64,000 nt of DNA from Squalus acanthias (GCA_030390025.1 CM059432.1:49168001-49232000); one strand, 5' to 3'; positions 3,594 to 63,050 are shown, counted from the first letter of the stretch. Notes: generated from the sequence alone by a model not told the origin. Translations and numbers: made by a program.

Positions 3594-4190
3594 GAGGCCT
3601 TCCTACAACGTATGAACGGACACCGCGCAACAATCGCCAGGCAGGATTGTTGCCTCCCAGTCGGGGAACACTTCAGCAGTCAAGGGCATTCAGCCTCGGA
3701 TCTGCGGGTGAGCGTTCTCCAAGGCGGCCTTCGAGACACACGACAACGCAAAATCATCAAGCAGAAACTGATAGCCAAGTTCCGCACTCATGAGGACGGC
3801 CTCAATAGGGATATCGGGTTCATGTCACGCTACAGAACGTGACTTGACATCGTTGTCTGTCTTTCCAGTTTTTAAAAAACAAACACAAAAAACCCCCCAA
3901 AAAACAAACCCAAAAAAACAAAAAAGCACTGCAGACAGCAGGATTTGACACGTTGGACCCCCTGTGACACATCTCATTGTCTTGGCTGTGCTCTTGGTGT
4001 GTCTTTGATGTAAGGACACCTTCCCTGAAAGATTGCATCTCTGCAGTTTCTGTGTTTATATTCTGTGAACTTTTGTAGATTCACTCATTGTAACTTTACC
4101 TGAGGAAGGGGCGATAGCTCCGAAAGCTTATAATTTTAAATAAATCTGTTGGACTATAACTTGGTGTTGTGCGATTTCTCATTTTTTTCC
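3594..4190 (+). mobile_element. Penelope-like retroelement 3' end: GIY-YIG endonuclease C-terminus plus 3' pseudo-LTR with hammerhead motif (family A)
   Basis: ORF 3612..3842 MNGHR..LPVGEHFSSQGHS..KLIAKFRTHEDGLNRD resembles PLE GIY-YIG C-termini; downstream UTR matches 43364-43716. Confidence 0.88.
4096..4133 (+). ncRNA. Minimal type-I hammerhead ribozyme-like motif (stem I mismatch)
   Basis: ttac-CTGAGGA-A-GGGGC-gata-GCTCC-GAAA-GCTT-ataa. Confidence 0.6.
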
Positions 4191-4228
4191 ATCTGAGGCC
4201 TTGCAAGCGACAAGCAGCACTCCCTGCA

Positions 4229-4640
4229 CTCCCACTCCAGGGACTTGAGCACATAATAAAGCTAGGCTGACACTCCAGTGCAGTGCTGAGGGAGTGCTGC
4301 ACTGTTGGAGGTGCCATCTTTCAGATGAGACGTTAAACCGAGGCCCCATCTGCTCTCTCAGGTGGACGTAAAAGATCCCATGGCACTATTTCAAAGAAGA
4401 GCAGGGGAGCTATCCCTGGTGTCTTGGCCAATATTTATCCCTCAACCAACATAACAAAAAAACAGATTATCAGGTTATTATCACATTGCTGTTTGTGAGA
4501 GCTTGCTGTGCGCAGATTGGCTGCCGCGTTTCCCACATTACAACAGTGACTACACTTCAAAAATACTTCATTGGCTGTAAAGCGCTTTGAGACGTCCGGT
4601 GGTCATGAAAGGCGCTATATAAATACAAGTCTTTCTTTCA
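4229..4640 (+). mobile_element. DeuSINE (SacSINE1-like), 5'-truncated
   Basis: Deu-domain gatgagacgttaaaccgaggcccc...aaaagatcccatggcactattt; L2-like tail gcgctatataaatacaagt. Confidence 0.85.
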
Positions 4641-4734
4641 TTTAAAAACTTTTAACATTTATTGCACCAAGCCACTACTTCGATAAAATAAAAAAAATCC
4701 AGTCCAATAGCTTAAATGCAAACATACCTGAAAG

Positions 4735-5053
4735 ATGTCTGTGTCCCTTTAAGAAGTGCTGACAGCATCTCTGTCAGTCAGCTTTTCAGAGTGAGCTTAG
4801 GACCTAGCACTAAACTCAACGCTAAGGTCGAAGTTTGAAGAGCATGACGTTAAGTCGATGTTGCACACCGACTGACGTCACGCTCTCAATATTTGCATCT
4901 TCAGGGCCAGCGCTGCTATCGGCAGCTCTAAGGCCCTCACCAAAATGGCAGCCACCGAGTCCCACACCAGAGAAGTGCGTTAGAATGGCAGCCGCCATTA
5001 TTTGCCAGGATTGCGGCGCTAACTCGTGGCGATAAGATAGGGAATTTCTGGGC
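4735..5053. mobile_element. Partial GC-rich Harbinger-type MITE end
   Basis: GCGCTA/TAGCGC motifs and TIR-like end gggaatttctgggcc. Confidence 0.45.
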
Positions 5054-5099
5054 CATTCACTTTGTGGAGGATAGTTAGCAAGTTGCAGGAGGGAATACC

Positions 5100-7400
5100 T
5101 GGTCTAGCACAGAGCATGAGATAGCAGTATCAAGTGCTGGTGGAGTTAGAGAAGCTGCAGCATTTTGGCTGCAGGGCCATCTCAATTGCTGAGCTCTGAG
5201 ATTCAGATCTCACAGAACCTGCCTACAAATATAGCATCAGCAGTTCAAGTGGTCCTTCAAAAATGTGCCAAGTAATCTGCACAGTCTGGGAACCTCTTCA
5301 GAGCAGGCCACAACCTGCATCTGACCATGCTGCAGACCACCATGGAAAGCATTTCTACTCCATGCAGTTAGCTAAAGTCCAAAGTTCAGGCATAGCAACC
5401 ATAACAAATGGTCTGACTGAGGTAGAACTTAGGCTGCAAACCAAAGCAGCCCATCTTGTTTGGATTCACCTAACTATGCCAGGCAGCATACAGGCCCAGG
5501 CAGGCACTGCGGCAACACCTATGGTGCCTCTAGTTGCAAAGCTATCTACTGATCCAGCACAAGGAGGTACTGATACTAACTACAGGAAAACATTAGCATG
5601 GGACAGCCAACCAACTAACTTATTTCTCTAACTGGGGAAACATTCAGAAGAACCATCCCATGCACTGTCACAGAGGGGAAGCACAAGGGGAAAACATATT
5701 AAACAGATCTGCACTGTTCATTGTTAGTATGAATAAAACTTGATTCAACTGGTACTCTAATGTGTTGTGACAGGACTTGGGATGATGGAGATAATATAGT
5801 TGTTGGGAAATCCTACGTTATTTATTGGGTCTTCTTGACTAAGGCTTATGGCAATGGTAGGGATCCTGTTTTTTGCCAGGGCATTGGGCAAATGTACACT
5901 TGACTGTTGTGCATTGTATGGCACAGCACCTAAGATGTTGTTTATTGCAGCCTGCCTTAAGACTTCTTCTAAATGAATAACTGGCCTTCAGACATCTCTT
6001 CTGGTTTCTGATCAGGGTGCGTTTCTACCATTGGTTGAAGGTGATCCATTTCTACTCTATGATTTGTTGGGCAAAGTTGGATAAGGTGCAGCAGACAATA
6101 ATAATGTGGAATTCCTTGGTCTTATGTACAGGAAGGTTCTTCCTTGGGTTGAGGCATCTGAACCTTTGTTTCAGATTCTGACAGTCTAATGTAGCAAGAC
6201 CCTGATAGCTGTGTATGTCTCAATAGATCTTTCTTCAAATCTAGTCCGTGGATATGTGAAAGGGCTCATTTGCCAGAGCTCCAGTGTATAAGAACATAAG
6301 AAATCAGAGCAGGAGTAGGCCATACGGCCCCTCGAGCCTGCTCCGCTATTCAATAAGATCATGGTTGATTTTCTACATTTCTACATTAACTCCAATTTCC
6401 TGCCCTATCCCCATATCCCCCAAATCTATCAATCTCAATCTTGAATATACTCATCAACTGAGCATCCACAGCCCTCTGGGGTAGAGATTTCCAAAGATTC
6501 ACAACCCTCTGAGTGAAGAAATTTCTCCTCATCTCAGTCCTAAATGGCTGACCCCAAATCGTGAGACTATGACCCTTAGTTCTAGACTCAACAGCCATGG
6601 GAAACATCCTCCCTGCATCTACCCTATCAAGTCCTCTAAGAACTGTATACATTTCAATGAGATCAGGCCTCATTCTTCTAAACTCCAGATAATATAGGCC
6701 CATTCTACTCAATCTCTCCTCATTGGACAACCCTCTCATCCCAGGAATCAGTCTTAGTCCCCTGGCAACAATCCATTGGGAAAGCAATTAGGTTCCTGAC
6801 CTAAGTCAACAATGCATGTGTCACCTACATGATACAACAATGCACTGAAGGTTGGGAAATTCGTCTGATATCTCCTGCCATTGCTTGGAATGATCCAGTG
6901 GCATAAAGAATTCACATTTGTATTCATTTTCTCAGCCACTGACAGAACCGTTCCTGTCCCTAAATTGCATTTAAGATCTGGCTGCAGGAGACCATCTAAT
7001 CTTGTCACAGCCTTGCTGGTGAATCATTGTCTGCATATGCAGATCTCTTTATTGCATTGGCCTATATATACCGGTGGTGGCATATGGGCAGCTCCTTCTT
7101 GAACACCTTTACGTGACTCAATTGATCCTCCTCCTTCTCTGCCAGAGATAGAAAGATGCCCAGTGGGATATGCGTAGGTGCTTTGTAGACCCTGTATAAT
7201 TACGTTCCCTTTAATAGGACACGCACCTCGTCAACATATTTTTTGCCACTAAATGAAGCTAGAGCGTGCCTGATGTACAAGCCTTCAGTGCTAGAAGCTT
7301 TTCCACACCATATTATAGGACATTATGTACATAAGGTGCACAGCGGGTCTCAGCACCCGATAATACTGGTCACCACTACAGGTGGAAGGTGTTGCACTAC
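5100..7400 (-). pseudogene. Heavily decayed Harbinger element (transposase remnant ~5900-7110 on -, split by a CR1)
   Basis: Minus strand reads LLQPDL..LSVAEK, then after a frameshift FYATGSFQAMAGDIRRISQPSVHCCI, homologous to the transposase at 32148-33312. Confidence 0.7.
6286..6752 (-). mobile_element. CR1 LINE 3' fragment
   Basis: ORF 6386..6787 RLIPGMRGLSNEERL..RRNFFTQRVVNLW; CR1 3' tail ttcttatgttctta. Confidence 0.92.
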
Positions 7401-7432
7401 TGACCCCATAGTCAACATAGGTTCAGCTCACA

Positions 7433-8510
7433 CAACAACAACAACTTACATTTATATAGCACCTTTAATGTAGTAAAATGTCCCAAGGCACTTCACAGGA
7501 GCTTTATCAAACAAAATTTGACATTGAGCCACATACGAAGATATTAGGACAGATGACCAAAAGCTTGGTCAAAGAGGTAGGTTTTAAGGAGGATCTTAAA
7601 GGAGGAGAGAGATAGAGAGGCAGAAAGGTTTAGGGAGGGAATTCCAATGCTTAGGGCCCAGGCAGCTGAAGGATCAGCTGCCAATGGTGGAGTGATTAAA
7701 ATCGTGGATGCGCAAGAGGCCAGAACTGGAGGACACACAGACCACGGAGGGTTGTAGGCATTGTTCCCTCTAAATTTTTTTGGTGCCACGTCCGCGCATG
7801 AGCAGTATCTTAGAGGGAACAGCTTGTGAGCGGCCTGTGCACTAACTTCCTGATTGCTGCGCAGCTTAGAGGGAATATTGGTTGTAGGGCTGGAGGAGAT
7901 TACAGAGATAGGGAGGGGCGAGGCCATGGAGGGTTTTGAAAACAAGGATATAAATTTGAAAACTGAGGCGTTACTAGACTGGGAGCCAATGTAGGTCAGC
8001 GAGCAACAGGGGTGATGGGTGAACAGGACTTGGTGCGAGTTAGGATAAGGGCAGCAGAGTTTGGATGAGCTCAAGTTTATATAAGGTGGAAGCTCATCTC
8101 GGGGTCAAATACGACACCAAAGTTGCGAATGGTCTGGTTCAGCCTCAGACAGTTGCCAGTGAGAGGGATGGAGTCGGTGGCTAGGGAACGGAGAATGTGG
8201 CGGGGACAAAAGACAATGGCTTCGGTCTTCCCTAAATTTAGTTGGAGGAAATTTCTGCTCATTCAGTACTGGATGTCAGACAAGCAGTGTGACAAATCAG
8301 AGATAGTGGCGTGGTCGAGAGAGGTTGTGGTGAGGTAGAGCTGGGTGTCGTCAGCGTACATGTGGAACCTGACAATGTGTTTTCGGATGATGTTGCCCAG
8401 GGGCAGCATGTAGATGAGAAATAGGACTCCAGAGGGAATGGTGCGGGAGTGGGACGAGAAGCCATTGCAGGTGATTCACTGGCTATGACTGGATAGATAA
8501 GAATGGAACA
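7433..8510 (-). mobile_element. L2 LINE 3' fragment
   Basis: MSRNFLQLNLGKTE, FKILLKTYLFDQAF; tail gctatataaatgtaagttgttgttg. Confidence 0.9.
7759..7880. mobile_element. hAT-like MITE (122 bp) inserted in L2
   Basis: TIRs CATTGTTCCCTCTAA / CAATATTCCCTCTAA; 8-bp TSD GTTGTAGG at 7751-7758 and 7881-7888. Confidence 0.85.
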
Positions 8511-9286
8511 TTCATAAACACAAGTGTGAAGAAAGTGCAACATGGCTACATTTAATTTGATCTTCTCATCAATAAATAGGCTTAACTGCTGCTTCCCTGC
8601 AAATGCTGGAAGCCCAATGCCGAAGTTTTAAACCTATATCAGAAATTGGGAGCCTCTGTCTCTACCAAACAACTGTTTTGTGGTGCATTACTTTTTTTTT
8701 TCTCTATTTATTCTAAGGATGTGGACAGGGCTGGAAAAGTTGCATTTATTGCTTATTCCTAGTTGCTCCTGAGAAAGTGGTGATGGACCTTCTGTAATTG
8801 TTGCTTTTAGAACTGAGCAGCACTTTAGAGGGCATTAAGAGTCAACCATATAGTGTGGGACTGTTGTCAAATGTAGGCAAAACCAGGTAGAGGGGGTAGG
8901 CTCTCCTTCCTGAAGGACAGTGAACCAGTAAGATTTTTAAAGCAATCTGGCAACTTACATGATTTTTTTTTCTGGTGCCACCCCCCGAAATACCAGATTG
9001 AAAAATATATTAAATTTCACAGCTTGCAATGGTGGGAGTTGAACTCATGACCTGGGTTGTTTCCGGATATCGTTAGCGGACTGTGAAAGTTATTAACATC
9101 CATAAATTCCTGCCCTCCATTAAATGGTTAACCATTGTCAATAATAATCATCTGTAATAATGGTTTGACATAGATATGTTCTTGGCAAGTTTAGGACTGG
9201 TCAACTGAAGCACGAGGCCCAAAAATGCTTTTAGATTTTAACATTTTAGTCTATTTTTTGATGTTTTGTCAATTGTATCTCACAAA

Positions 9287-9861: not shown

Positions 9862-11460
9862 CCCATCTTCTTCTTAGGCAGTCCCTCAGAACCGAGGATG
9901 ACTTGCTTCCACACTAAAAATGAGTTCTGTGTGCTGTGAGGAGGATGCAGAGAAACTCCAGTATGATTTGGAAAGGTTGGGTGATTGGGCAGATGCAGTA
10001 TAATGTGGATAAATGCGAGGTTATCCACTTTGGTGGCAAAAACAGGAAGACAGATTATTATCTGAACAGCAATAGATTGGGAAAAGGGGAAGTGCAACGA
10101 GATCTGGGAGTCCTTGTGCACCAGTCGCTGAAGGTAAGCATGCAGGTGCAGCAGGCGGTTAAGAAGGCAAATGGTATGTTGGCCTTCATAGCGAGAGGAT
10201 TCGAGTACAGGAGCAAGGATGTTTTGTTGCAGTTGTACAAGGCCTTGGTGAGACCACACCTTGAGTATTGTGTGCAGTTTTGGTCGCCTTATCTGAGGAA
10301 GGATGTTCTTGCCATGGAGGGAGTGCAGCGAAGATTTACCAGACTGATACCTGAGATGGCAGGAATGATGTATGAAGAGAGATTGGGTCGAGTAGGCTTA
10401 TATTCGCTAGAGTTTAGAAGAATGAGAGGGGATCTCATTGAAACTTATAAAATTCTAACAGGACTAGACAGACTAGATGCAGGAAGGATGTTCCCGATGG
10501 CGGGGGAGTCCAGAACCAGAGGTCACAGTCTAAGGATAAGGGGTAAGCCATTTAGGACTGAGATGAGGAGGAATTTCTTCACCCAGAGAGTGGTGAACCT
10601 GTGGAATTCTCTACCACAGAAGGCAGTTGAGGCCAATTCATTAAATATATTCAAGAAGGAGATAGATATATTTCTTAAGGCTAAAGGGATCAAGGGATAT
10701 AGGGAGAAAGCAGAGACAGGGTACTGAATTTGGATGATCATCCATGATCTCATTAAATGGCGGAGCAGGCTCGAGGGGCTGAATGGCCTACTCCTGCTCC
10801 TATCTTCTATGCTTCTCAGGTGACTGATGAGTCCAATGCGGGACCTACAGTCTCTGTCACAGGTGGGGCCGACGGTGGTTGAAGGGGTGCTTGGGTTGAT
10901 GTGCGCTCCTTCCGCTGTTTGCGCTTGGCTTCCGCTTGCTCCCGGCGAAGAGACTCGAGGTGTTCGGCGTCTTCCCGGATGCTTCTCCTCCAGTGCGGTC
11001 TTGGGCCAGGGATTCCCAGGTGTCGGTGGGGATGTTGTACTTTTTCAAGGAGGCTTTGAGGGTGTCCTTGAAGCGTTTCCTCTGCCCACCTGGGGCTCTC
11101 TTGCCGTGTCGGAGGTCCGAGTAGAGCGCTTGTTTTGGGAGTCTCGTATCGGGCATGCGGACGATGTGGCCCGTCCATCGGAGCTGATTGAGCGTGGTCA
11201 AAGCTTCGATGCTGGGGATGTTGGCCTGAGCGAGAACACTGATGTTGGTGCGCCTATCCTGCCAATGGATTTGCAGGATCTTGCGGAGACAGCATTGGTG
11301 GTACCTCTCCAGTACTTTAAGGTGCCTGCTGTACATGGTCCATGTCTCTGAAGCATACAGGAGGGCGGGTATCACTACTGCTCTGTAGACCATGAGCTTG
11401 GTGCTGCGTTTGAGGTCCTGGTCTTCAAACACTCTCTTCCTCAGGCGACCGAAGGCTGCA
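9862..11460 (-). mobile_element. RTE-clade LINE 3' fragment, interrupted by CR1 at 9928-10816
   Basis: ORF 10857..11492 AAFGRL..LLYASETW..LRWTGHIVRMPDTRLPK..GGQRKRFKDTLK; 3' end with (aag)n tail at 9862-9927. Confidence 0.88.
9928..10816 (+). mobile_element. Young 5'-truncated CR1 LINE
   Basis: ORF 9936..10727 is a CR1 ORF2 C-terminus; nearly identical to 59574-60473. Confidence 0.95.
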
Positions 11461-12858: not shown

Positions 12859-15505
12859 ATGTTTCTTGATCAGTATGTTTCTGGCCCAACGAGGAAGGAG
12901 GCATTGCTGGATCTGGTTCTGGGGAATGAGGTAGGTCAAGTGGAGAAAGTGTCAGTAGGTGAGCATTTAGGGAACAGTGATCATGGTATCATAAGGTTTA
13001 GATTAGCTATGGAAAACGACAGGGAGCAATCTAGAGTAAAAATACTTAATTGGAGCGAGGCCAATTTCAGTGGGATGAGAACGGATCTGGCCCGGGTAAA
13101 TTAGAATCAAAGATTGGTAGGCAAAACTGTAATGAAACAATGGGCTGCCTTTAAAGAGGAAATAGTTCAGGTACAGTCGAGGTACATTCCCACAAGGGGG
13201 AAAGGTAGGGCAACTAAAGTCAGAGCTCATTGGATGACGAAAGAGAGCATGTAAGATGAAGCAGAAAAAAAGCACATATGACAGATCAAAAACACATCTG
13301 AGAATCAGGCTAAATATAGAAAGTTCAGAGGAAAAGTGAAAAAGAAAATAAGAGGGGCAAGGAGAGGGTATGAGAACAGAGTGGCAGCTAACATAAAAGG
13401 TAATCCAAAAGTCTTCTATAGGCATATAAATAGTAAACGGGTAGTAAGAGGAGGGGTGGGGCCGATTAAGGACCAAAAAGGAGACCTATGCATAGAGGCA
13501 GAGGGTATGGCTGAGGTGCTAAATGAGTACTTTGCATCTGTCTTCACCAGGGAAGAAGATGCTGCCATTGACATAGTGAAGGACGAGGTAGAGGAGATAC
13601 TAGATGGGATAAAATTGATAAAGAGGAGGTACTAAAAAGGCTGGCTGTAATTAAAGTACAAAAATGTGCGGGTTAGGTTGATTTGGCTATGATAAATTGA
13701 CCCTTAGTGTTAGGGGGGGATTAAATATGTGGGGTTATGGGGATAGGATAGGATGGGATATGTTAGGGGGAATTAAATACGTGGGGTTACAGGGGTCGGG
13801 TGGGATATGTGTACTGTGGGGATTAAAGCAGGGACAGGGTACTGGATTTGACTGATCAGCCATGATCGTATTGAATGGTGGAGCAGGCTCGACGGGCCGA
13901 ATGGCCTACTCCTGCTCCTAGATTCTATGTTTCTATAAGTCACCAGGACCAGATGGGATGCATCCTTGGACGCTGAGGGAAGTGAAGGAAGAAATCGTGG
14001 AGGTACTGGTCATAATTTTCCAATCCTCCTTAGAAATGTGGATGGTGCCAGAGGACTGGAGAATTGCAAATGTTACACCCTTGTTCAAAAAAGGGTGTAA
14101 AGATAAACCCAGCAACTACAGGCCAGTCAGTTTAACCTCGGTAGTGGGGAAGATTTTAGAAACAATAGTCAGGGACAAAATTAACAGTCACTTGGACAAG
14201 TGTGGATTAATTAAGCAAAGCCAGCATGGATTTGTTAAAGGTAAATCGTGTTTAACCAACTTGATCGAGTTTTTTGATGAGGTAAAAGAAAGGTTGATGA
14301 GGGCAATGCGGTTGACGTGGTGTACATGGATTTCCAAAAGGCGTTTAACAAAGTGCCATATAATAGGCTTGCCAGCAAAGCTGAAGCCCTTGGAATAAAA
14401 GGGACAGTGGCAACATGGATACGAAATTGGCTAAGTGACAGGAAACAGAGAGTAGTGGTGAACGGTTGTTTTTTGGACTGGAGGAAGGTATGCAGTGGTG
14501 TTCCCCAGGGATCGGTTCTAGGACCACTGCTTTTCTTGATATATATTAATGACTTGGATGTGGGTGTACAGGGCACAATTTCAAAATTTGCAGATGACAC
14601 AAAACTTGGAAGTATAGTGAACAGTGAGGAAGATAGTGATAGACTTCAAGAGGACACAGACAGGCTGGTGGAATGGGCAGACACGTGGCAGATGAAATTT
14701 AGCGCAGAAAAGTGCAAAGTGATACATTTTGGTAGAAAGAATGAAGAGAGGAAATGTAAATTAAAGGGTACAATCCTAAAGGGGGTGCATGAACAGAGAG
14801 ACCTAGGGGTATATGTGCACAAATCGTTGAAGGTGGCAGGGCAGGTTGAGAAAGCAGTTAAAAAAGCTTACGAGATCCTGGGCTTCATGAATAGAGGCAT
14901 AGAGTACAAAAGCGTAGAAATTATGATGAACCTGTATAAAACACTGGTTCGGCCTCAACTGGAGTATTGTGTCCAATTCTGGGCACCGCACTTTAGGAAT
15001 GATGTGAAGGTCTTTGAGAGGATGCAGAAAAGATTTACGAAAATGATTCCAGGGATGAGGACTTCAGTTACATGGACAGACTGGAAAAGCTGAGGTTGTT
15101 CTCCTTAGAGCAGAGAAGATTGAGAGGAGATTTGATAGAGGTATTCAAAATCTTGAGGGGTCTGGACAGAATAGATAGAGAGAAACTGTTCCAATTGGCA
15201 GAAGGGTTGAGAACCAGATGACACAGATTTAAGGTGATTGGCAGAAGAACCAAAGGCGACATGAGGAGAAACTCTTTTACTCAGCGAGTGGTTAGGATCT
15301 AGAATGCACTGCCTGAAAGGGTGGTGGAGGCAGACTCAATCACCGCTTTCAAAAGGGAATTGGATAAGTACCTGAAGGAAAAAAATTGCAGGGCTATGGG
15401 GAAAGGGCAGGGGAGTGGGACTAGCTTAAGTGCACTTGCAGAGAGCAGGCATGGGCTCGACGGGCCGAATGGCCTTCTTCTGTGCTGTAACCATTCTATC
15501 ATTCT
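12859..15505 (+). mobile_element. Long degenerate CR1 ORF2 (endonuclease C-terminus to RT and 3' UTR)
   Basis: LDLVLGNE..HLGNSDH, NYRPVSLTS, GVPQGSVLGP, KFADDTKL across frameshifted ORFs 12859-15093. Confidence 0.95.
13659..13935 (+). mobile_element. 5'-truncated HE1-type V-SINE nested in CR1
   Basis: Reverse complement of 36550-36835; splits the CR1 KV/KSPGPDG codons. Confidence 0.85.
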
Positions 15506-21826: not shown

Positions 21827-24439
21827 ACAGACTTTTGATTTTCATGCCAGACCAGTTTTCGGTGGGTAGACTTTGTTATCAGTTCAAAGCTCACGCACTG
21901 CAGTCAAAAACAGGCCCAGGTTATTTTAACTTCCGGGCCTCATAAGGTTTCCCACTCGATTCGCTGACCAGCCAGAGCGCAATTTCCGGTGAGTCAGTCA
22001 GAAGCCTATTTAAAATGCAAAAGCACCTCTTAAAGTGAGGTTGCATTCCCTTCTGCAAGATTTCGATGTTGGAGTGGTGCAGCAAGAATTTGAGTCAGCA
22101 TAAGCCACAGGCATGGCCCCAGGTTCTCTGAGGCCTCCCTGGAGGTCCCAGCTAGTGCCAGGAAGAGCCCCAAAAGCCATCCACTAGGCATGGAGAACGA
22201 TTGTTGAGGTTGCCACCTCCAGGTACATTCAGCCCCAGGACCTAGATCCAGTGCAGGAAGCACTTCAATAACCTCACAAGACTAGCAAGAGTGAATACAG
22301 CTCTTAATTTCTCACAGCTATTTCAAGTACACTTGGCACCAGTCCTTTCCCCCCACCCCTCTCAACAATTCACTGCCCTCCACCATATCTTTCATCGCCC
22401 AACATAAGGTTACACTATTCCACTTCTCATTCCCTTTACAATTACACACTCATCACTTCCTTGCTCCTTTCACAGCAGCCAATAAAGGAATGTTTTGTTT
22501 TTATATGTTTGTACATTGCCCTCTCTCAGGATGTCAGCATGTCTGATTCCTCGCCACCCCCTCAACCAATACCAACCACGGTGACAGCAATCTAGCTGGG
22601 CCAAACTGCTTCAGTAGTAGCCAAAGTGGTCCAGCTCCCACAGCCACAAACATCTCAAGTGTCCCCACATGAGCAATAGCAGCCTTCCACCAACTCTGCT
22701 GAAGCCACTGAGGGAGCACCTCATAGGTGTAGCAGTGAGTAAATCTTTTTTAAATAAAGCACCATGGATTGATCACTTGGGTGACAAAATAATTCACTAC
22801 ACTATTGTGTTTGGAATTAAGATCAACACATTTATACATTTTCAGTTTTGGTCTATAGTTTCTTCTCATTACAGCTTCTTAGTCTGCACTGTCAGAATTT
22901 CATTGACATAGAGGTTGGCTGAATGGTTTCAATGTCGTTCAATTCAGAATCAAGGGAAAGGTGAAGGGGTAATAATCACTGTTAATACTTTTTCTGACAT
23001 TTTTGGTAAGGCGACTGAGGAGGTCACTGAGAGTGCTGCTCTATCAACTTCTCCCTGGCTTGTCTAGCTGCAAATTGTTCTGCTGTCCCGCCTTCTTATG
23101 GTTCTCCCTCGCCTTCATCCAATTCTTCCTTTTCTAACAATGCATCTTTTTGTTGCTGTGCCTTTTCCAACTTCAATCCTCTTTGCATTGTCAGGTTGTG
23201 GCGAATGCAGCAAACTACAATGATGTAACCTGCTTTTCTGGGCCATGTTGTAGGGAGCCCCCAGAGCGATCAAGGCACCTGAAACTTTGCTTCAGAATGC
23301 CATGGTATGCTCCACGATGTTCCTGGTGGTCCCATGGCTTTCACTGCACCTGTGTTGCTTAGGCAGAGAGGTATCATCAGCCGGATGTGGAGGAGGTATC
23401 CCTTGTCTCCTAGCAGCCATCTTCTGACATCTGGATGGATCGAAAAATGGGCTGATGGATGAGAGTCGCATAATGAAGGCATCATGGCAGCTGCCAGCGT
23501 AACTTCCGCAGACCTGCATTCTTCTTCTGCAGTGATCATACATCAGTTGAACATTGATGGAATGGAAGCCCTCCATAGTCATATAACTGTGGGCTCCTTT
23601 TCTGGTGCCTTGAAAGCTACATGAGTGCCATCTATTATGCACAGGACACAAGAGAAGCCGACCACTGCTGAAAATCCAAGAGCTTTCTCATTCTTGATGT
23701 TGGCGTCCATTGTAAAGGTAATGTACTGATTTACTCTGGCAAAGAGGGCATTGGTGACCTGTTTAATACAGCTGTGCACTGCAGAGTGGACAATGTACCC
23801 TATAGCAGCCTGGAAGGAGGCTGTAGCAAAAAAAAATTAAGAGTCGTGGTGCCTTTGAGAGCCACTGGCAAAGCATGGGCCCCTGGTCCAGCACGCAGTA
23901 GGTCCTGCTGAAACAGGCTGCATAGGTCAGCAGCAGCTTGCCTGGTGAAGGACAGATTCCTGCTGCACTGCTCCTCAGAAATATCTAAGTAAGTAACTCT
24001 CGGCCTATAGATTCTGTGGGCTGGGTAAGGTCTTCTACAAGCAGCTCCCCCTTCTCACCTGCTGTCTTCTAACAAGTCCAGCTGCTGCTTGTCCTGGTTC
24101 TTCAGGCTGCTGCTGTTCCTCTTCCTCCAACTGTTCATCCATGCAAAGGAGTGAAGCAAAAGCAGCACCTGTGAGAAGCAGTGGTGCTTGATGAGGGTAG
24201 GTAAGGGCAAAATAAATTATAAACAAGCAAACTGGAGGCACAGAACTGCTCTGTAAATGCACATCATTTAGTGGCGTTTAGATCCTAATGACCATAGTGC
24301 CCGGTGGGTGCCTCTTTAAATTCAGCTTCTAGTTATGTCAGTTTATGAAGCCAATGCCACTAAGCTTTACTCAGCAGGTTTGCCATCAGGCAGGACTTCT
24401 GACCCACCTAGTTAAAATCGCATTGGGTTGATATAATGG

Positions 24440-31730: not shown

Positions 31731-31889
31731 GATGTGTAAATAAATGGGGGGGATGTTTGTGGGAAAGTTCAAGGTTCTTGTTATTATATTTGTTTAGTGT
31801 TTTGCCGTTTATCTCCATGTTGTGAGAACGAGTTTTGTTAGTTCATGATTTGTTGTGTTGGTTTCTAATTGTTTGTCCTGAATAAATGA

Positions 31890-31991
31890 AAATGAGAAGT
31901 CGCACAACACCAGGTTATAGTCCAACAGATTTATTTAATTTTATAAGCTTTCGGAGCTGTCGCTCCTTCCTCAGGTAAGTTAGCAGTGAGA
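31890..31991 (-). mobile_element. 102-bp Penelope family-A terminal fragment with hammerhead motif (31941-31978)
   Basis: Matches 4096-4186; 10-bp direct repeat GAATAAATGA at 31880-31889 and 31992-32001. Confidence 0.85.
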
Positions 31992-32147
31992 GAATAAATG
32001 ACACAGAGTTTGTAATATAAATATATTTTTTTATTCTAACTTTACATATTTGGTCATTTGACTCATTGCAGCTTTGCCCGGTAATAAGGGGTGCGGGATG
32101 CTTTCCATGTGCTTCTTCATCCCAGAAGCCATCTTCTCAGTAAGGGC

Positions 32148-33312
32148 TTAGAATCGGTGTCTTATGAGCCGTTCACGGACGGCCCTTGCAGTGGCAACAT
32201 TGTGCGCCTCCCTCCCACATTGGTGCGGCTGATCCTCCTCTTTATCCTCCTCCTCCTCCTCCTCTCCCTCTTCCTCCTCCTCAGGTGGTGCACCAATCCT
32301 TGGTGGCAATGGCTGGGTCCTCATAATTGCAATGTTATGTACCATGCAGCACACAACAATGAAAAGGGAGACTCGCTCGGGAGAGCACTGCAGGGCTCCT
32401 CCTGAGTGGTCAAGACACCGGAACCGTTGCTTCAAGACGCCGATCGTCTGCTCAATCAGGTTCCTGGTGGCGCTATGGCTCTCATTATACTACAGCTCGG
32501 CAGGGGTGTTGGGGTTACAGAGCAGTGTCATCAGCCAGGTGCAGAGTGGATAACCCTTGTCCCCTAGGAGCCATCCACTTGGCTGATACGGTGCCTGGAA
32601 AAGGTCTGCCACACCAGTCTGGCGCAGGATGAAAACATCGTGGCTGCTGCCAGGATAGCGGGCATTGACGGCGAGTATGAGCTGTCTGTGGTCACAGACC
32701 AACTGGACATTTAAAGAGTGGAAGCCCTTGCAGTTTCAGAAGATCTCTGTATTTTCATGCGGTACCCGCAATGCCACATGCATGCAGTCAATGGCGCCCT
32801 GAACCACAGGGAAGCCCGCTATCCTCGCAAAGCCATAGGCGTGTTCGCGCTGTTTGTCCTGGGTCATGGGGAAAGAGATGTACAGGCGTCTACTCTTATA
32901 CAGAGCAATTGTCACCTCCCGGATGCAACAATGGACAGCGAACTGCGAGATATTCGCTATGTCCCCAGTAGAAGCTTGAAAGGAGTCGCTGGCATAAAAA
33001 TTCAGAGCCACCGTCACCTTCACTGCCACCGACAGACATCGTGGCCCTGAGCTGAGGCTGCAGATCTGGTTGCAGGAGGTGGTAGAGCTCTGTGATCACC
33101 TCCTTGCTGAAGCGCAGCCTTTGGAAACACTGCTCCTCGGACAAATGAATGTATGAGAATTGCTCCCGGAATATCCTGGGTGGGTAAGGTCTCCTGTGCA
33201 GAGGCCTGTTGGCCCTCCTCCCTCTGGCTACGTTTGCCACTCTCTCTCTATGCCTCTGCTGCCTCCGATTGTGCAGCAGGACGATGACGCCCCGAGTTAG
33301 TGCAGCCCCCAT
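32148..33312 (-). pseudogene. Harbinger DDE transposase (HARBI1-like family), frameshifted
   Basis: [26 protein letters not shown] and RNLIEQTIG motifs split over four ORFs. Confidence 0.93.
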
Positions 33313-40289: not shown

Positions 40290-41732
40290 TTTTTTTATTA
40301 ATTCATGGGATGTGGGTGTCGCTGGCAAGGCCAGCATTTATTGCCCATCCCTAGTTGCCCTTGAGAAGGTGGTGGTGAGCCGCCTTCTTGACCAGTTGCA
40401 GTCCGTGTGGTGAAGGTACTCCCACAGTGCTGTTAGGGAGAGAGTTCCAGGATTTTGACCCAACGACGATGATGGAACGGCGATATACTTCCAAGTCAGG
40501 ATGGTGTGTGACTTGGAGGGGAAGTTGGAGGTGATGGTGTTCCCATGCGCCTGCTGCCCTTGTCCTTCTAGGTGGAAGGGGTCACGGGTTTGGGAGGTGC
40601 TGCCGAAGAAACCTTGGTGAGTTGCTGCAGTGCATCTTGTAGATGGTACACACTGCAGTCATGGTACGCCGGTGGTGGAGGGAGTGAATGTTTAAGGTGG
40701 TAGATGGGGTGCCAATCAAGCGGGCTGCTTTGTCTTGGATGGTGTTGAGCTTCTTGAGTGTTGTTGGAGCTGCACTCATCCAGGCAAGTGAAGAGTATTC
40801 CATCACACTCCTTACTTGTGCCTTGTAGATGGTGGAAAGGCTTTGGGGAGTCAGGAAGTGAGACACTCGCCGCAGAATACCTAGCCTCTGACCTGCTCTT
40901 GTTGCCACAGTATTTATGTGGCTGGTCCAGTTAAGTTTCTGGTCAATGGTGACCCCCAGGATATTGATGGTGGGAAATTCGGCGATGGTAATGCCGTTGA
41001 ATGTCAAGGGGCGGTGGTTAGATGCTCGCTTGTTGGAGATAGTCATTGCCTGGCACTTGTGTGGTGCGAATGTTACCTGCCACTTATCAGCCCAAGCCTG
41101 AATGTCGTCCAGGTCTTGCTGTATGCGGGCATGGACTGCGTCATTATCTGAGGAGTTGCAAATAGCACTGAACACTGTGCAGTCATCAGCGAACATCCCC
41201 ACTTCTGACCTTATTATGGAGGGAAGGTCATTGATGAAGCAGCTGAAGATGGTTGGGCCTAGGACACTGCCCTGAGGAACTCCTGCAGCGATGCCCTGGG
41301 GCTGTGATGATTGACCTCCAACCACCACAACCATCTTCCTTTGTGCTAGGTATGACTCCCGATTCCCATTGACCTCAGTTTTACTAGGGCTCCTTGATGC
41401 CACACTCGATCAAATGCTACCTTGATGTCAAGGGCAGTCACTCTCACATCACCTCTGGAATTCAGCTCTTTCGTCCATGTTTGGACCAAGGCTGTAATGA
41501 GGTCTGGAGCCGAGTGGTCCTGGCGGAACCTAAACTGGGCATCAGTGAACAGGTTAATGGTGAGTAAGTGCTGCTTGATAGCACTGTCAAAAACACCTTT
41601 CATCACTTTGCTGATGATTGAGAGTAGACTGATGGGGCTGTAATTGGCCGGGTTGGATTTGTCATGCTTTTTGTGAACAGCACATACCTGGGCAGCTTTC
41701 CACATTGTCGGATAGATGCCAGTGTTGTAGCC
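40290..41732 (-). mobile_element. Non-LTR retrotransposon RT and 3' end (CR1/L2-group family)
   Basis: ORFs 41346..41705 and 40582..41403: NYSPISLLS, LDIKVAFDRVWH, GVPQGSVLGP, MFADD. Confidence 0.93.
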
Positions 41733-43225: not shown

Positions 43226-44236
43226 GGGGGTAAATTATAACCCCTCCCCTGACCCCCCCCCCCCCCCCAAGCGTGAATGGTGCAATGGGAGGGGTTAAGA
43301 TCAGGCCAAGTCCATTTACGCACAGTTCTCGCCCGGCAACATCTTATCTTCACCGACTTTGAAGTCACGCTACAGAACGTGACTCAACATCGTTGTCTGT
43401 CTTTCCAGTTTTTAAAAGAAAAACACACACCAAAAAAAAAGTTAAAAGCTCAACTGCAGACAGCAGGATTTGACACGTTGGACCCCCTGTGACCCATCTC
43501 ATTGTCTTGGCTGTGCTCTGGTGTGTCTTTGATGTAAGGCCTCCCTGAAAGATTGTATCTCTGCAGACAAATTGCTTTCGGTGTTTATATACTGTGAAAT
43601 ATTGTAGATTCCCTCATTGTAACTCTACCTGACGAAGGGGCAACAGCTCCGAAAGCTTGTAATTTTAAATAAATCTGTTGGACTATAACCTGGTGTTGTG
43701 CGACTTCTCATTTTTGTCCACCCCAGTCCAACACCGGCATCTCCCCATCATGACTTTGAAGTCGTCCAAGGCTCCCGCTGCAGGCGAGCCAGGGACTAAT
43801 TAAAATTTAAAAGCCATCATCAGTGCTGCAACGTGATTTGTATGATGACGCGGGGAGGCCTGCCTGGTGTCAAACCCGCCAGAGGCCAAGCTAAGTAAGA
43901 TATTTTATTCTTCGGGAAGAAATCCTCAGGCCTCTCTTGCCCGGGCGTCCCCCACCCTCTCCACATCGGCATTTGTTTGGGGAGAAAGAACCCCCTACCC
44001 CTTAACTTATGCCGGGGTCCGTTCCCAAATGTCCTCACCGGAGGACGGCTCCCGCCCGCTGGCCTTAACGTCATGCCCGCCAGCTTCCTGCTGGACACTG
44101 GTTTTAAACATGGCCCTTCTGTGAAAATCAGCCAGTTCTCCACTCCCCGGGTTTTGTCGCCCGCTTCGGGGCTCGTGTGCACTGTACTCGATTTCCCTCC
44201 CCCCCCCCCCGCCCCACCCCAATTAAAATTGGGGCC
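43226..44236. mobile_element. Harbinger-type MITE (family II) hosting a Penelope pLTR
   Basis: Ends gggggtaaattataac / ttaaaattggggcc. Confidence 0.65.
43364..43751 (+). mobile_element. Solo Penelope pseudo-LTR with tail and hammerhead motif (43626-43661)
   Basis: Homologous to 3824-4186; 12-bp duplication GACTTTGAAGTC at 43355-43366 and 43752-43763. Confidence 0.9.
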
Positions 44237-49989: not shown

Positions 49990-51190
49990 GAACCTTCGAG
50001 CTATTAGGGCAATGTGATCGGCTCGTTGGGGATTCAATCTTCATCTTCATCCTCTTCATTGGATTCCTCATCAGATGAAGAGTGCTGAGCGGCTTGTTGC
50101 TCCTTCACCTCTAGTACTCGCTGCTGCACGATGTTGTGCAGAATGCAGCACATCACGATTATCCTAGAGATTCTCACTGACGAGTATTGAAGTGCGCCTC
50201 CAGACCTATCCAGGCACCTGAAGCGCATCTTGAGCATGCCAATGGCTTGCTCGATGACATAGCTGGTTGTCATATGGCTGGCACTGTAGCGCTCTTGAGG
50301 TTCATTGGAGGATTCGCTCAGAGGTATCATCAGCCAGGTTTGAAGGGGGTATCCTTTGTCACCTTGCAGCCACCCCGTAAGGGTGGTTTCACGTACGAAC
50401 AGGTCGGGGATATTGGATTGCCGCAGTATGAAAGCAAAATGACAGCTCCCAGGGAATCTGGTGTTGCACACCAACTGAACATTGATGAAATGAAATCCCT
50501 TACGGTTGACAAATGCTCCTGGTTGATCTGGTGGTGCTCGGATTGCCACGTGTATGCAATCAATGACACCCTGTTCTTGTGGAAAGTCAGCCTGGCTATT
50601 TTCATTACTGGGGAAGTTTACAAAACATCCCAGCCAATGTTCCCTTTAAGCTGCGTGACTGGCAGACCGGCCTTTAAATGGAAAACGTGCAAAGCGTGGA
50701 ATTTTGAATGGGTCACGCTGCCCCTTATGGGGCCATACGGCCCAAAAACAATTAGAGGGATCATTGCTCCCTAGCAAACAATCCATCAGTCACCTGCTGT
50801 ATGCATTTATGTGCAGCGGACTGTGAGACCCTCGATATGTCTCCAGTAGCGCTCTGGAAGGAACCAGAGGCAAATAAATTGAGTGCGGGGTGACTTTCAA
50901 AGCCACTGGTAATGTGTGTCCGCCAGGTCCAGCAGGTAGCAGGTCTTCTTCTAAGATGCTGCAAATGCCTGCTATCACCTGACGTGACAATCTCAGCCTC
51001 TGGAAGCATTGCTCTTCCGAGAGGTCAAGGAAGCTGAGCCTCTGTCTGTACATGCTGATATGTGGGTAGTGCCTCCTGTGAACTCGACCCCTCTGTTGCT
51101 CCCCTCTCTGTTGTCCACCTGCAGCTCCCTTCACAGCACTGTTTGTCTTCGTTGTCTGAAGTCCAATTTCGAGCAGCCCTGATGCCATCC
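49990..51190 (-). pseudogene. Harbinger DDE transposase, disrupted
   Basis: LNLFASGSFQ, NRKGFHFINVQLVC, WLQGDKGYP, VIEQAIGMLKMRFRCLD. Confidence 0.92.
50635..50766. mobile_element. hAT-like MITE in the transposase gene
   Basis: TIRs CAATGTTCCCTTTAA / CAATGATCCCTCTAA, same type as 7759-7880; TSD degenerate. Confidence 0.75.
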
Positions 51191-51654
51191 ATCCTCTCAC
51201 GTGTACTCTCACCAAACCTTTACCCAGAGGGAGCTGAGAAAGCAGTTGTGAACACTGAGCCTTTGTTCATATTGGGACACCTGACCTTTAACCAACCCCA
51301 TGAAGTGCCCCTCAATCTTGCCTTCATTTCTGTGCTGTAAATACTACGTAATATGATGTAAAACCTGTGCAGGAGGCGTTAATTTCAAATCGCTGCCAAA
51401 ATCTCAATAAAAGACCCTCATTATAATCACTGACCCGCCTCTCCAGAATGAGTTACTCGGATGCACCCAAACCCGCCGCGGTTAAATGGGAAGTAGGCAC
51501 GTTTGCAGTGGGTTGGGGTCAGGGTGTAGATTTTTGCCAATTTAACGCCCCCCCCGCCCCACCCCCGACCCTCTCCGGGGAGGTTAAAATTCCCCCCTTA
51601 GTTTCAATTTTAGAGTGGTGTGGAAATTCCCTTAGACCCATTATCAGGCCATGA

Positions 51655-53417: not shown

Positions 53418-53720
53418 TATTTACAGCACAGAAACAGGCCATTCAGCCCAATAGGTCCATGCCGATGTTCATGCTCCACATGAGCCTCCTCCCACTGTTC
53501 TTCATCAAACCCCAGTTCTGACGAAGGGTCATCAACCTGAAACGTCTACTCTGTTTCTCTCTCTGCAGATGCTGCTTGACCTGCTGAGTATTTCCAGCAT
53601 TTTCTGGTTTTATTTCCCATCAACATATCCTCTATTCCTTTCTTCCTCATGTGCTTATCTAGCTTCACCTTAAATGCTATTCGCATCAACTACTCCTTGT
53701 GGTATCGAGTTCCACATTTT
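53418..53720 (-). mobile_element. CR1 3' fragment containing a Penelope family-B insert
   Basis: acagcacagaaacaggccattc..cttatctagcttc..ttaaatgc; homologous to 17060-17250. Confidence 0.75.
53514..53615 (+). mobile_element. Penelope-associated family-B terminal fragment with GUC-type hammerhead motif (53514-53550)
   Basis: agtt-CTGACGA-AGGGTcatcaACCT-GAAA-CGTC-tact; downstream part shared with 3520-3590. Confidence 0.75.
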
Positions 53721-58468: not shown

Positions 58469-58519
58469 AATGTTTTCTCCCATGAGTTTAAAAAACAAGA
58501 GGCAACCAGACAAATGATG

Positions 58520-60765
58520 ATTACAAAAACAATTTGCATTTATATACCATCTTTAATGTAGAAAAATGTTCCAAGGTACTACACAGGGGCATAATCAGAC
58601 AAAATTTGATACCGAGCCACATAAGGAGATAGATATGTGAAGAGAAAAAGATTGGTGAAGTCAAGCGTAGGTCCCTTGCAGTCAGAATCAGGGGAATTTA
58701 TAATGGGAAACAAAGAAATGGCAGACCAATTAAATACATACATACATACTTTGGTTCTGTCTTCACAAAGGAGGACACAAATAAACTCCCAGAGATGTCG
58801 GGAAACATAGGGTCTAATGAGAGGGAGGAATTGAATGAAATCAGTATTTGTAGGGAAATGGTGTTAGGGAAATTGACGGGATTGAAGGTCGATAAATCCC
58901 CAGGGCCTGATATTCTACATTCTAGGGTACTTAAGGAAGTGGCCCTAGAAATAGTAGATGCATTGCTGGTCATCTTGCAAAATTCTATAGACTCTGGAAC
59001 AGTTCCCATGGATTGGAGGGTAGCTAATGTAACCCCACTATTTAAAAAAGGTGGTCGAGAAAAAACGGGGAATTATTGACCGGTAAGCCTGACATCGGTA
59101 GTGGGCAAAATGCTAGAGTCCATTATAAAAGATGTAATAGCAGAGCACTTGGAAAACAGTGACAGGATCAGACAAAGTCAACATGGATTTACAAAAGGTA
59201 AATCACGCCTGACTAATCTACTGGAATTTTTTGAGGATGTAACTGGTAGAATAAATAAGGGAGAACCAGTGGATGTGGTGTATTTAGACTTTCAGAAGGC
59301 TTTCGATAAGGTCCCGCATAAGAGATTAGCGTGCAAAGTTAAAGCACATGGGATTGGGGGTAAGGTACTGATTTGGATAGAGAACTGGTTGGCAGACAGG
59401 AAGCAAAGAGTTGGAATAAACGGGTCTTTTTCTGAGTGGCAGGCAGTGACTAGTGGGGTACCGCAAGGATCGGTGCTAGGACCCCAGCTATTCACAATAT
59501 ATATTAATGATCTAGACGAGGGAACTAGATGTAATATCTCTAAGTTTGCAGACGACACAAAGCTGGGTGGGCGTGTGTGCTGTGAGGAGGATGCAGAGAA
59601 ACTCCAGTATGATTTGGACAGGTTGGGTGATTGGGTAGATGCATGGCAAATGCAGTATAATGTGGATAAATGCGAGGTTATCCACTTTGGTGGCAAAAAC
59701 AGGAAGACAGATTATTATCTGGACGGCAATAGATTGGGAAAAGGGGAAGTGCAACGAGATCTGGGAGTCCTTGTGCACCAGTCGCTGAAGGTAAGCAAGC
59801 AGGTGCAGCAGGCGATTAAGAAGGCAATTGGTATGTTGGCCTTCATAGCGAGAGGATTCGAGTACAGGAGCAAGGATGTCTTGCTGCAGTTGTACAAGGC
59901 CTTGGTGAGACCACACCTTGACTATTGTGTGCAGTTTTGGTCACCTTATCTGAGGAAGGATGTTCTTGCCATGGAGGGAGTGCAGCGAAGATTTACCAGA
60001 CTGATACCTGGGATGGCAGGAATGACGTATGAAGAGAGATTGGGTCGATTAGGCTTATATTCGCTAGAGTTTAGAAGAATGAGAGGGGATCTCATTGAAA
60101 CTTATAAAATTCTAACAGGACTAGACAGACTAGATGCAGGAAGGATGTTCCCGATGGTGGGGGAATCCAGAACCAGAGGTCACAGTCTAAGGATAAGGGG
60201 TAAGCCATTTAGGACTGAGATGTGGAGGAATTTCTTCACCCAGAGAGTTTTGCACCTGTGGAATTCTCTACCACAGAAGGCAGTTGAGGCCAATTCATTA
60301 AATATATTCAAGAAGGAGATAGATATATTTCTTAAGTCTAAAGGGATCAAGGGATATGGGGAGAAAGCAGGGATAGGGTACTGAATTTGGATGATCATCC
60401 ATGATCTCATTAAATGGCGGAGCAGGCTCGAGGGGCCGAATGGCCTACTCCTGCTCCTATCTTCTCTGCTTCTATATCTGGACCGGTGACCAAAACCTTG
60501 GTCAAAGAGGTAGGTTCTAAGGAGCATCTTAAAGAAGGAGAGAGAGGTAGAGAGGCGCAGAGGTTTAGGGAGGGAATTCCAGAGCTTAGGGCCCAGGAAG
60601 CTGAAGACACGACCATCAATGGTGCAGCAATTAAAATTAGGGATACGCTAGAGGCCAGAATTGGAGGAGCACAGAGATCTCGGAGGGCTGGAGGAGGTTA
60701 CAGAGATAAGGAGGGACGAGGCTATGGAAGGATTTAAAAATAAGGTTGAGAATTTTAAAATAGAG
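58520..60765 (-). mobile_element. L2 3' fragment split by CR1 (58520-58629 and 60476-60765)
   Basis: Collinear with 7440-7980 on both sides of the CR1. Confidence 0.85.
58630..60475 (+). mobile_element. Young 5'-truncated CR1 LINE with near-intact RT (ORF 59101..60384)
   Basis: YLDFQKAFDKVPH, GVPQGSVLGP, KFADDTKL; in-frame TGA at 59077-59079; CR1 3' tail. Confidence 0.97.
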
Positions 60766-60899
60766 CCTTACCTAGTTAAAGGGGAAGGAAGTGTAAGGGA
60801 GTACTTCAAAATATTCCTCTCCTGACAGAATTAACATAAACTTAATTTATTGGAAATGACTAAGCCTGAATGGAGGCCCACAAGTCGGATTTCCTTCCC

Positions 60900-61180
60900 T
60901 CCTAGATTGCTTTAGCTCTGTCGATAGCCTGCTGCTTTTGATGTTTAGCATGCAAGTAGCTCTGTGTTGTAGCTTTAGTAGGCTGATGCCTCATTCTATA
61001 AGGTATGCCTGGTGCTGTTCCTGGCATGCCCTTCTACATTCTAGATTGAACCAGGTTTGTCCTGACTTGATGGAGATGGAAAGACAAAGAGAGTACTGGA
61101 CCAAAAGGTTACAGATTGTGATGATATACAATTATGCTGCTGATGAGGGCCCACAGTGCCTCATGCATGCCAAGTTTTAG
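60900..61180 (-). mobile_element. Old decayed LINE fragment
   Basis: ctttagctctgtcgatagcctgctgctt matches 815-843. Confidence 0.5.
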
Positions 61181-62803
61181 CACAATTTCAAATTTAATTT
61201 CACAATTTGTCATGGTGGGACTCACAAACTCTGGGTTGATAAACCAGTACCATAGCTATTACCCTACCGTACCCATAGTAGTAAAAAAAGAACTCCATAA
61301 TAAAGCATAAATTAGTGTATAATCTAAAGATTTTTAAGTGCAGTCGCGATTTCAGATATTTTTTAGTGAAAATGTATGAACTTCCAAAAACAGACTCAGC
61401 AAACTATCAGTGAGATTTGGAATAACTGCTTCAGATGCAGAAATAAAATTAAACATTTACTGGTTTATAGTTGTTTGATACATCATTGATTGATAGCATA
61501 TCTGTAATTCAAAGATCATGCAGGCACTCTATTGACTGTAAATGGCAGGGAGGAAATTCATTCATTTCCCCACGTTTGTCGATGCTGATTTGTCTGACAG
61601 TGGGCCTGAAAAGTGCAGTGTGATCGACAGGTGAATTTGATGGCCTGCTACTTTGTTCATTTAACAAACTCAGTCAGCAGTATTTCAACTGGGTACAAAA
61701 GGGATTTCTTGCTGTTCTCAGCTACTCTATCAAGCTGTTTCAGGACAACCTGTCCTGCACAATAGAGCTCCTGCGAACTGCGAGTGTTCTGATTGACCGC
61801 AACACAAGAAGGGGGCAGCTAACAATATCTGGCGTTGATCTGAGATTAGATCTGTTTTTTTTAAATCACTCCAAAATAATACAGAGGAGGGCTCACATTC
61901 CGCCTGGGGTCCACCAGTCTCCTGCCATAATTCTGGCACCGAATTTCAGCTCCAGGTAATTTTATGGTGTGTCCTTATGCCAGGTTTTGGGTCAGACATT
62001 GTGCCATCTGTGGGTGTCAGTTTGGAAGCAGACTGCCAGTAATTATTTTGATATTGTTCTGTGTTTAATTGAGAAATGATCTGCAGTTGATTTCTGGAAA
62101 ATTCTATGGCAACATTCTTAAAGTAAATTGATCTATACACTGTTAATCCGGTCTTCACACTGTTTGCAACATGTTGACTAACTCTATTCCACTTTTCTCC
62201 CTCCATCTCCTGAAGGGTTTGACTCAAGCCGGTGCATGGTACCATAAGCAATGGCCACCCTTGGTTACCTTGTTCAAGTGTTCATTGTTCATGGTGCTGA
62301 TAAGCTATTTGTTTATGGTGGCCACTGCAGTTGAGTTAGATCCTGCTTTCACCCAGCATCTGCGCACGGGCGCGGGGTGGCGGGGGGGATAATTTTGACT
62401 TCAATGGAAATAAACATTGGGAGAGATTGTAGTCCCCACATCCCCCTTTGGTTGAGATCAGCTATCTCAGCATAAACTGATGATCATACCCAGGACTGTA
62501 CTATTTTGTATAGCTCAATTCCACAATGACTTTCCCAACTGATCCATTGGGGAAGCCAGAAGAATTGAACTACGTGTGATTGGTGACGAACAATGCAAAC
62601 ATTCCCTATGTTTTACTAACATGAAATAGGTTTTGGGAATTAGTGCTCCTGGAGCAGGGTTTCACGCAACAGGAGTGCATATCTGGAATTCAGATGTGGA
62701 GGTCAACATGCCATTCGGAATGAACCCCACGCATGTAGGGAGTGTATTATAGGAAATCTCAGGTGCACAGCCTGTAATCATTTAAATGACTGGAAAATGA
62801 TCA

Positions 62804-63050
62804 TGATGCGGAGATGCCGGTTTGGACTGGGGTGGACAAAAATGAGAAGTCGTACAACACCAGGTTATAGTCCAACAGTTTTATTTAAAATTACGAGCTT
62901 TCGGAGCGTTGCTCCTTCTTCAGGTACAAGTACAGTGAGTACTTGTACAAGTACTGTACTTGTACCTGAAGAAGGAGCAGCGCTCCGAAAGCTCGTAATT
63001 TTAAATAAAACTGTTGGACTATAACCTGGTGTTGTGCGACTTCTCATTTT
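62804..63050. mobile_element. Inverted Penelope family-A pLTR pair (palindrome) with tail and two hammerhead motifs
   Basis: Arms 62837-62936 / 62953-63052 with 2 mismatches; 13-bp duplication TGGAAAATGATCA at 62791-62803 and 63051-63063. Confidence 0.92.

Follow-up and report, generated by a model that had tools for sequence, protein, structure and literature searches.

Minimal hammerhead motifs in the terminal repeats of truncated Penelope-like insertions in Squalus acanthias

The window analyzed here is a 64,000-nt stretch of the Squalus acanthias genome (GCA_030390025.1, CM059432.1:49168001-49232000), in which an initial annotation, made from the sequence alone, listed five copies of a hammerhead-like motif and read their variation as a sign of selection on ribozyme structure. 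What kind of element carries these motifs, and for what is their fold kept?

Five motifs in four insertions of one repeat family

All five motifs were recovered at their listed positions on re-scan (Table 1). Within CTGA-N-GA only N7 varied (G, G, C, A and A in copies 1-5), stem II was GGGGC or GGAGC with GCTCC, loop II read GATA, GACA, AACA, AAC and AGC, and the cleavage base H17 was T, T, T, C and C, all as first described. The description of a module dispersed five times holds for the motifs but not for the insertions: target duplications of 8, 10, 12 and 13 bp indicate four insertions, and the motifs at 62892 and 62963 form one inverted pair.

Table 1. Insertions and hammerhead motifs in the window (positions counted from its first letter)
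Feature	Position	Strand	Remarks
Insertion 1, 5'-truncated Penelope-like element	3602..4186	+	endonuclease C-terminal remnant to 3839, 3' UTR, hammerhead, tailless 3' end
Hammerhead copy 1	4097..4132	+	C3 4100, H17 4129; stem I closing pair broken, G1.1>A at 4130
Insertion 2, 107-nt 3' stub	31889..31995	-	begins about 17-21 nt before hammerhead
Hammerhead copy 2	31942..31977	-	C3 31974, H17 31945; G1.1>A at 31944
Insertion 3	43364..43752	+	last ORF codons, 3' UTR, hammerhead, tail
Hammerhead copy 3, intact	43626..43661	+	C3 43629, H17 43658
Second-family minimal hammerhead, partly decayed	53515..53549	+	GUC triplet; motif at 53518(+)
Insertion 4, head-to-head inverted stub pair	62804..63050		tail only on minus arm
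Hammerhead copy 4	62892..62926	-	C3 62923, H17 62895
Hammerhead copy 5	62963..62997	+	C3 62966, H17 62994

The first insertion, flanked by what is likely a target duplication of 8 bp (3594 and 4195), was 93.7% identical over 584 nt to the near-full-length copy L100. The frame upstream of its hammerhead had been taken for a GIY-YIG ORF; only a 78-aa C-terminal remnant is present there, with neither a start codon nor the GIY-YIG motif, and in the 84-aa frame at 3588-3839, 77 of 78 amino acids were identical to residues 814-891 of the full-length 891-aa ORF. An inverted, hammerhead-less remnant of a second family's 3' end (3466-3590) abuts the 5' end of this insertion. Insertion 2 (97% identity to L061) carries a 10-bp duplication at 31880 and 31992, and insertion 3 a 12-bp duplication at 43355 and 43752; the tail of the latter stops at the ORF start codon (43750-43752, the positions of tail and ATG being read from full-length copies). 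Insertion 4 is flanked by a 13-bp duplication (62791 and 63051). Its arms are 100 nt long and 98% complementary, the arm of copy 5 begins 13 nt 5' of C3 at an initiator-like A, and the RNA of either strand is predicted to form a fold-back hairpin of ~100 bp (-190 kcal/mol).

A tight motif pattern had 49,742 exact matches in the 3.7-Gb genome, compared with 0 for a reversed control, so that the motif is not a product of chance; a 20-nt anchor just downstream of the hammerhead had 101,697 matches. The five motifs belong to one repeat family, with about 100,000 ends in the genome. In its full-length copies L061 and L099, an intact 891-aa ORF lies between two hammerhead-bearing repeats ~3,040 nt apart, and the hammerhead stands ~125 nt before the start codon (repeat-ORF-repeat). 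The ORF contains an RVT_1 reverse transcriptase domain (E 2e-8), and its C-terminal region was nearest to GIY-YIG clusters (score 0.96, with the family on 31-34% of members); a search for GIY-YIG in the ORF gave no match in Pfam or NCBIfam and only E 0.07 in PHROGs. A CxxxxCxxC linker motif precedes the endonuclease in the L099 translation. Using the downstream anchor, we collected 101 copies within the initial 3.05 Mb of contig C1, representing 66 insertions; 31 of these contained a head-to-head inverted pair, and all 29 simple pairs had a tail on exactly one arm. The single ORF with reverse transcriptase and C-terminal GIY-YIG endonuclease, together with 5' truncation, an inverted partner, a tail on one end and a target duplication, is characteristic of EN+ Penelope-like elements. 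From the linker, which is also found in Nematis, and from Neptune-like C-terminal motifs of the ORF, the element appears to be of the Neptune type. The anatomy of truncation, inverted pairs and tails is the published anatomy of Penelope-like elements (PMC8557442, PMC3846280). A conserved segment on the 3' side of the hammerhead (L061:4485-4570, minus strand) could base-pair with the tail into a stem-loop that spans both alternative 3' ends, with a weak z-score of -1.2.

The variation had also been called structure-preserving, which fits the loop, N7 and H17 but fails at copies 1 and 2, where G1.1>A turns the stem I pair adjoining the cleavage site into a C-A mismatch. In genome-wide pattern counts this allele had 40 copies compared with 16,720 for the wild type, which points to decay after insertion; a lineage of its own was rejected, the allele being private. 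Its occurrence twice within 28 kb, in different sublineages, is probably chance seen after the fact, ~0.03 such pairs being expected by rough estimate. CpG decay was rejected as the source of the five-copy variation at most sites, given that the N7, loop and H17 alleles are common to lineages; it does fit G12>A and the cases in which arms differ by N7=T. Monomer folding z-scores were weak in four copies (-0.1 to -1.1), and the value of -2.9 for copy 2 belongs to a non-hammerhead fold; these scores were set aside. An Rfam scan of the window gave no hammerhead family at E<=1; its weak microRNA matches, on the fold-back, were accounted for by the inverted pair.

The 15 runs examined consisted of assembled contigs, and 8 of these runs were only guessed to be RNA; the motif was present in contigs of several related organisms, which show neither ends nor strand. 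Four contig sets contained no GT-AG joint, and a location of the hammerhead inside an intron was rejected. In two further organisms, 2-12% of the contig depth carried U16.1>C and N1.2 U>C (L061:4585, 4588), possibly another core-variant lineage. Occurrence in presumed RNA runs would accord with host-used ribozymes that cut host transcripts, but we consider this extremely unlikely for the window copies, which are young insertions with target duplications, two with a broken stem I, two locked in a hairpin and none with a tandem partner. Whether solitary or folded back, they are predicted to be inert, and the motif probably works for the element and not for its host.

A sixth hammerhead in the window, at 53518(+), was absent from the earlier list. 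It belongs to the second family, which has a GUC/GUU triplet and different stems and gave 61,665 pattern matches compared with 508 for a control. Second-family hammerheads recur on the same strand ~1.6-1.7 kb apart (contig C1 6988692-6992103 and 7055873-7059142), possibly as a tandem array. Elsewhere in the window, a 54-nt tandem repeat (29886-30317) has an open frame of His/Lys/Gly-rich units. Fragments at 32148-33330, 50034-51266 and 23292-23687 (all minus strand) resemble a Harbinger-type transposase, the first of them adjoining insertion 2, and the long open frames at 59080-60384 (+), 9924-10727, 14281-15093 and 40582-41409 resemble reverse transcriptase fragments of CR1/L2-type LINEs.

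Conservation of the fold across source lineages

The proposed selection on ribozyme structure in source elements draws nothing from the five copies themselves, in which there are only a one-sided A-U/G-U change and two stem-breaking mutations, with no double-sided change; it does find support in the genome-wide sample. We parsed 86 of the 101 anchor-sampled copies (the 15 unparsed look truncated by eye), with a limit of 2+1 substitutions for the core boxes, which introduces a small bias toward conservation. In this sample, one of the 11 core sites had a shared allele, as had 17 of the 36 flanking sites (P = 0.03), the difference being not significant when the core was set against the 28 linker and downstream sites (P = 0.23); loop II had 19 sequences of 3-9 nt, N7 had four alleles and H17 was only T or C. 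Across 232 parsed copies H17 was never G, A9.1 was present without exception, and G10.1-C11.1 was found in 230.

Among the 32 haplotypes each seen at least twice, stem cells were paired in 288 of 288 cases, compared with only 21-46% in slid-register controls. These haplotypes contained two double-sided compensatory pairs, each accompanied by a G-U form: stem I pair 3 (U-A/U-G/C-G) and stem II pair 5 (C-G/U-G/U-A). Both probably arose once each, and the double-sided-pair measure was matched by 125 of 500 shuffles, in a test that related sequences inflate.

The check set in advance was whether the core mutates as often as the loop across lineages, and it does not: a tree built from 52 long copies placed two steps on the 11 core sites, both G12>A at CpG, compared with nine at N7 and means of 0.94 at third codon positions and 1.12 in the UTR (Poisson P = 0.002 and 0.0004, respectively). 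The 35 nt downstream of the hammerhead took only 8 steps on the same tree; their conservation equals that of the core, and they too must be under constraint. Some private changes fall on G8, on G12 and in the stems. The tree has 8-9 changes at N7 and at position 2.4 of stem I, compared with no more than 5 at any third codon position, and G, C and A all recur on otherwise identical backgrounds (L070-L114); hypermutation or fine-scale template switching is a candidate explanation of this excess. The fold is kept across element lineages, in that changes shared by a lineage leave stem pairing intact and hardly ever touch the core, and selection on the hammerhead structure in source elements appears supported by these comparisons.

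One core change, U4C, had 3,791 pattern matches, mostly on a few linked loop types. U4C copies are nearly identical, with their own ORF end variant and open frames of up to 697 aa; they include at least four loop types (L145, L185, L188, L195, L251-L270), and the stem II compensatory change falls within this group. Of 50 loci inspected, none held a U4C copy of full length. To judge from these sequences, the U4C lineage is young; with it counted, the core is not fully invariant.

A structure that is now non-catalytic, either protein-binding or promoter-proximal, and conserved together with the downstream initiation region, would account for the equal conservation of the 35 downstream nt, the amplification of the U4C lineage to thousands and templates that appear uncut. 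Such a structure is nevertheless improbable in our view, given that the catalytic bases are fixed while the variation at N7, H17 and loop II stays within what hammerhead chemistry permits, and that the second family has the same core boxes on different stems (although it was selected by pattern). We have considerable confidence that the motifs are minimal type I hammerheads in the terminal repeats of four 5'-truncated Penelope-like insertions, and that the fold is kept most likely for weak, dimer- or protein-dependent self-cleavage in the copying cycle of intact sources. A dimer fold is possible, at -13.5 kcal/mol compared with -21.7 kcal/mol for the predicted minimum.

Copy 5' ends and the template RNA

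The 5' ends of 32 of the 101 sampled copies mapped between -21 and 0 from C3 (~3 are alignment artefacts by eye), with a peak of nine at -7, one of them an artefact. Genome patterns of equal capture gave 2,375 ends at -7 compared with 388 at the cleavage site. The neighboring positions -8 and -6 gave 1,619 and 1,443, and ~40-45% of each of these lists were, by eye, lineage variants or opposite-strand readings of the -7 junction. Among the matches listed, a G preceded the -7 base in 73 of 100, compared with 43 of 100 at the cleavage site. Twenty cleavage-site ends were inspected and comprised 13 inverted junctions, many of which sit where stem I offers 4 nt of complementarity, 5 single copies and 2 intact motifs bearing small indels; an origin of these ends as cleavage products was rejected because 15 of the 20 were inverted junctions or indels.

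In the lineages with ends at -7, that base is an initiator-like A, and a TATA-like box lies 30-33 nt above it. A rotifer pLTR is described as having a similar pair (PMC3846280), and Drosophila Penelope has a TATA-less internal promoter. Forty-five of 61 ends at -7 were inverted, and the commonest junction is palindromic about a single central base. Two cDNA ends with a cap-templated base each would fit this junction, and a blunt join would fit it too. An untemplated G marks capped LINE-1 templates (PMC4859970); seven single copies with a duplication beside the -7 end showed one clean extra G, one case of two extra bases, four of none and one that was ambiguous. Because the ends pile up at -7 and not at the cleavage site, the templates would seem to be capped and uncut, which suggests that the RNA is mostly copied uncut, with an in vitro parallel in the anole element discussed below, whose hammerhead requires protein in order to cut. 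Literature searches found no published 5'-end analysis of this kind for Penelope hammerheads.

The same observations bear on the possibility that the hammerhead is an attenuator at the mRNA 5' end, whose occasional cleavage decaps the RNA and limits protein, with no part in template making. A start 7 nt before C3, copies that seldom begin at the cleavage site, the tolerated U4C change and the lack of effect of anole catalytic mutants on in vitro insertion (PMC11167929) all agree with this; but attenuation requires cleavage by a single motif, and min-HHR monomers are reported as inactive in vitro (PMC4209133), so that we rate it as rather unlikely.

It is fairly probable that, in the largest lineages, transcription starts 7 nt 5' of C3, ~31 nt below the TATA-like box; reverse transcription would then initiate internally, using either of two sites that lie 3' of the hammerhead, and would often traverse the uncut hammerhead to the capped 5' end, leaving stubs of ~100-250 nt and inverted pairs. 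An RNA that starts below its promoter cannot transmit it, so the template must exceed one unit. With a chance that we place slightly under even, cleavage would matter for the rarer event that yields a promoter-bearing source: cuts at both repeats would release a unit to be joined into a circle and copied more than once round, an over-unit template by which the promoter is regained. Read-through of tandems could provide such a template as well. More tentatively still, the copies may be read as a record of an RNA life cycle, in which transcription starts just before the hammerhead, capped uncut RNA is copied including the cap, paired cDNA ends give inverted stubs, cleavage serves only promoter-bearing sources, and a lineage weakened by U4C spread while repairing stem II. 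The family is a natural test set, having many young lineages with different stems, one of them with a core change, and intact ORFs. Its 5' ends, which can be mapped in their thousands, are relevant to the question of whether the template is cut or uncut RNA.

Comparison with known hammerheads and Penelope-like elements

The motif resembles the min-HHR of Cervera and De la Pena (2014, PMC4209133) in its type I topology, 3-bp stem I and lack of helix III, as well as in being present in each of the two terminal repeats and in having numerous truncated copies that stand alone or pair on opposite strands. The consensus given there has an extra base after A9 (between 9 and 10.1), a G10.1-C11.1 pair, a palindromic 15.2-16.2 and an NUH triplet (PMC4209133). 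All five window motifs contain CUGANGA(H) and GAAA, followed by a palindromic 15.2-16.2, U16.1 and H17; the sampled copies of the family also have the unpaired base 9/10.1, G10.1-C11.1 and short stems I and II with covariation, the stem I closing pair being broken in window copies 1 and 2, and the motif lies in both pLTRs of the full-length element (L061, L099). Accordingly, the extra A and the CUH triplet, which had been called non-canonical, both appear in the published alignment, and 4 of its 56 rows (rotifers, Schistosoma and turtle) share the GC-U-C/U core (Fig. S3, PMC4209133). The suggestion of a shark-specific non-canonical variant could appeal to the absence of a shark row among these 56 motifs, to the silence of Rfam and to literature searches, which found no description of a Penelope ribozyme in a shark; every feature fits the min-HHR consensus, however, and the turtle row has the same core and triplet (PMC4209133), so that we regard the suggestion as very improbable and as refuted at the sequence level. 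Two other classes were rejected: the canonical Rfam hammerhead, which has a stable helix III and loop-loop tertiary contacts, given the lack of helix III and of any Rfam match at E<=1, and the non-LTR retrozyme, whose non-coding units lie in head-to-tail tandem, the window copies being dispersed or inverted ends of a coding element. A 2026 preprint includes one chondrichthyan, but its subject is tandem retrozymes.

In copy number, ~50,000 exact matches to one pattern and ~61,000 for the second family surpass the 4,000-9,000 given for coelacanth and Xenopus (PMC4209133). The 56-motif alignment shows U3-A8, and the U4C lineage is not among what that survey's alignment describes (PMC4209133). U4C is known from a viroid hammerhead (Perreault et al. 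2011, PMC3088659), where it lowers in vitro activity yet permits infection, so that the same core change is tolerated in a replicating RNA; unlike the viroid case, the shark U4C belongs to a minimal motif that lacks tertiary contacts, and copying has spread it to thousands of places in the genome.

With respect to function, min-HHRs are reported to have low, dimer-dependent activity, and a circle model was proposed (PMC4209133). The function of Penelope hammerheads is elsewhere called unclear (PMC8557442). The Poseidon element PAc of Anolis carolinensis (Frangieh et al. 2024, PMC11167929) is described as having protein-assisted cleavage, internal initiation at two sites and uncut RNA as main substrate, in vitro insertion being unaffected by catalytic mutants. 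The shark element resembles PAc in a hammerhead at the repeat/ORF junction, a tail between two alternative 3' ends and uncut RNA as the apparent template. In PAc, however, the ORF begins inside stem II and initiation occurs 111-118 nt into it (PMC11167929), whereas the shark start codon lies ~125 nt past C3 and both ends are at or before it; unlike PAc, moreover, the shark ORF has the Cys linker before the endonuclease, a trait of Neptune and Nematis, to which a Cys-rich linker is common (PMC8557442). The shark element is like the Neptune clade in its single ORF with reverse transcriptase and C-terminal GIY-YIG, Cys-rich linker and partial tandems, and in an inverted 5'-truncated copy with a 30-40-bp tail on one end (PMC8557442). 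Motif and host element are thus of a known kind, and what is added here is the U4C lineage and the record of 5' ends.
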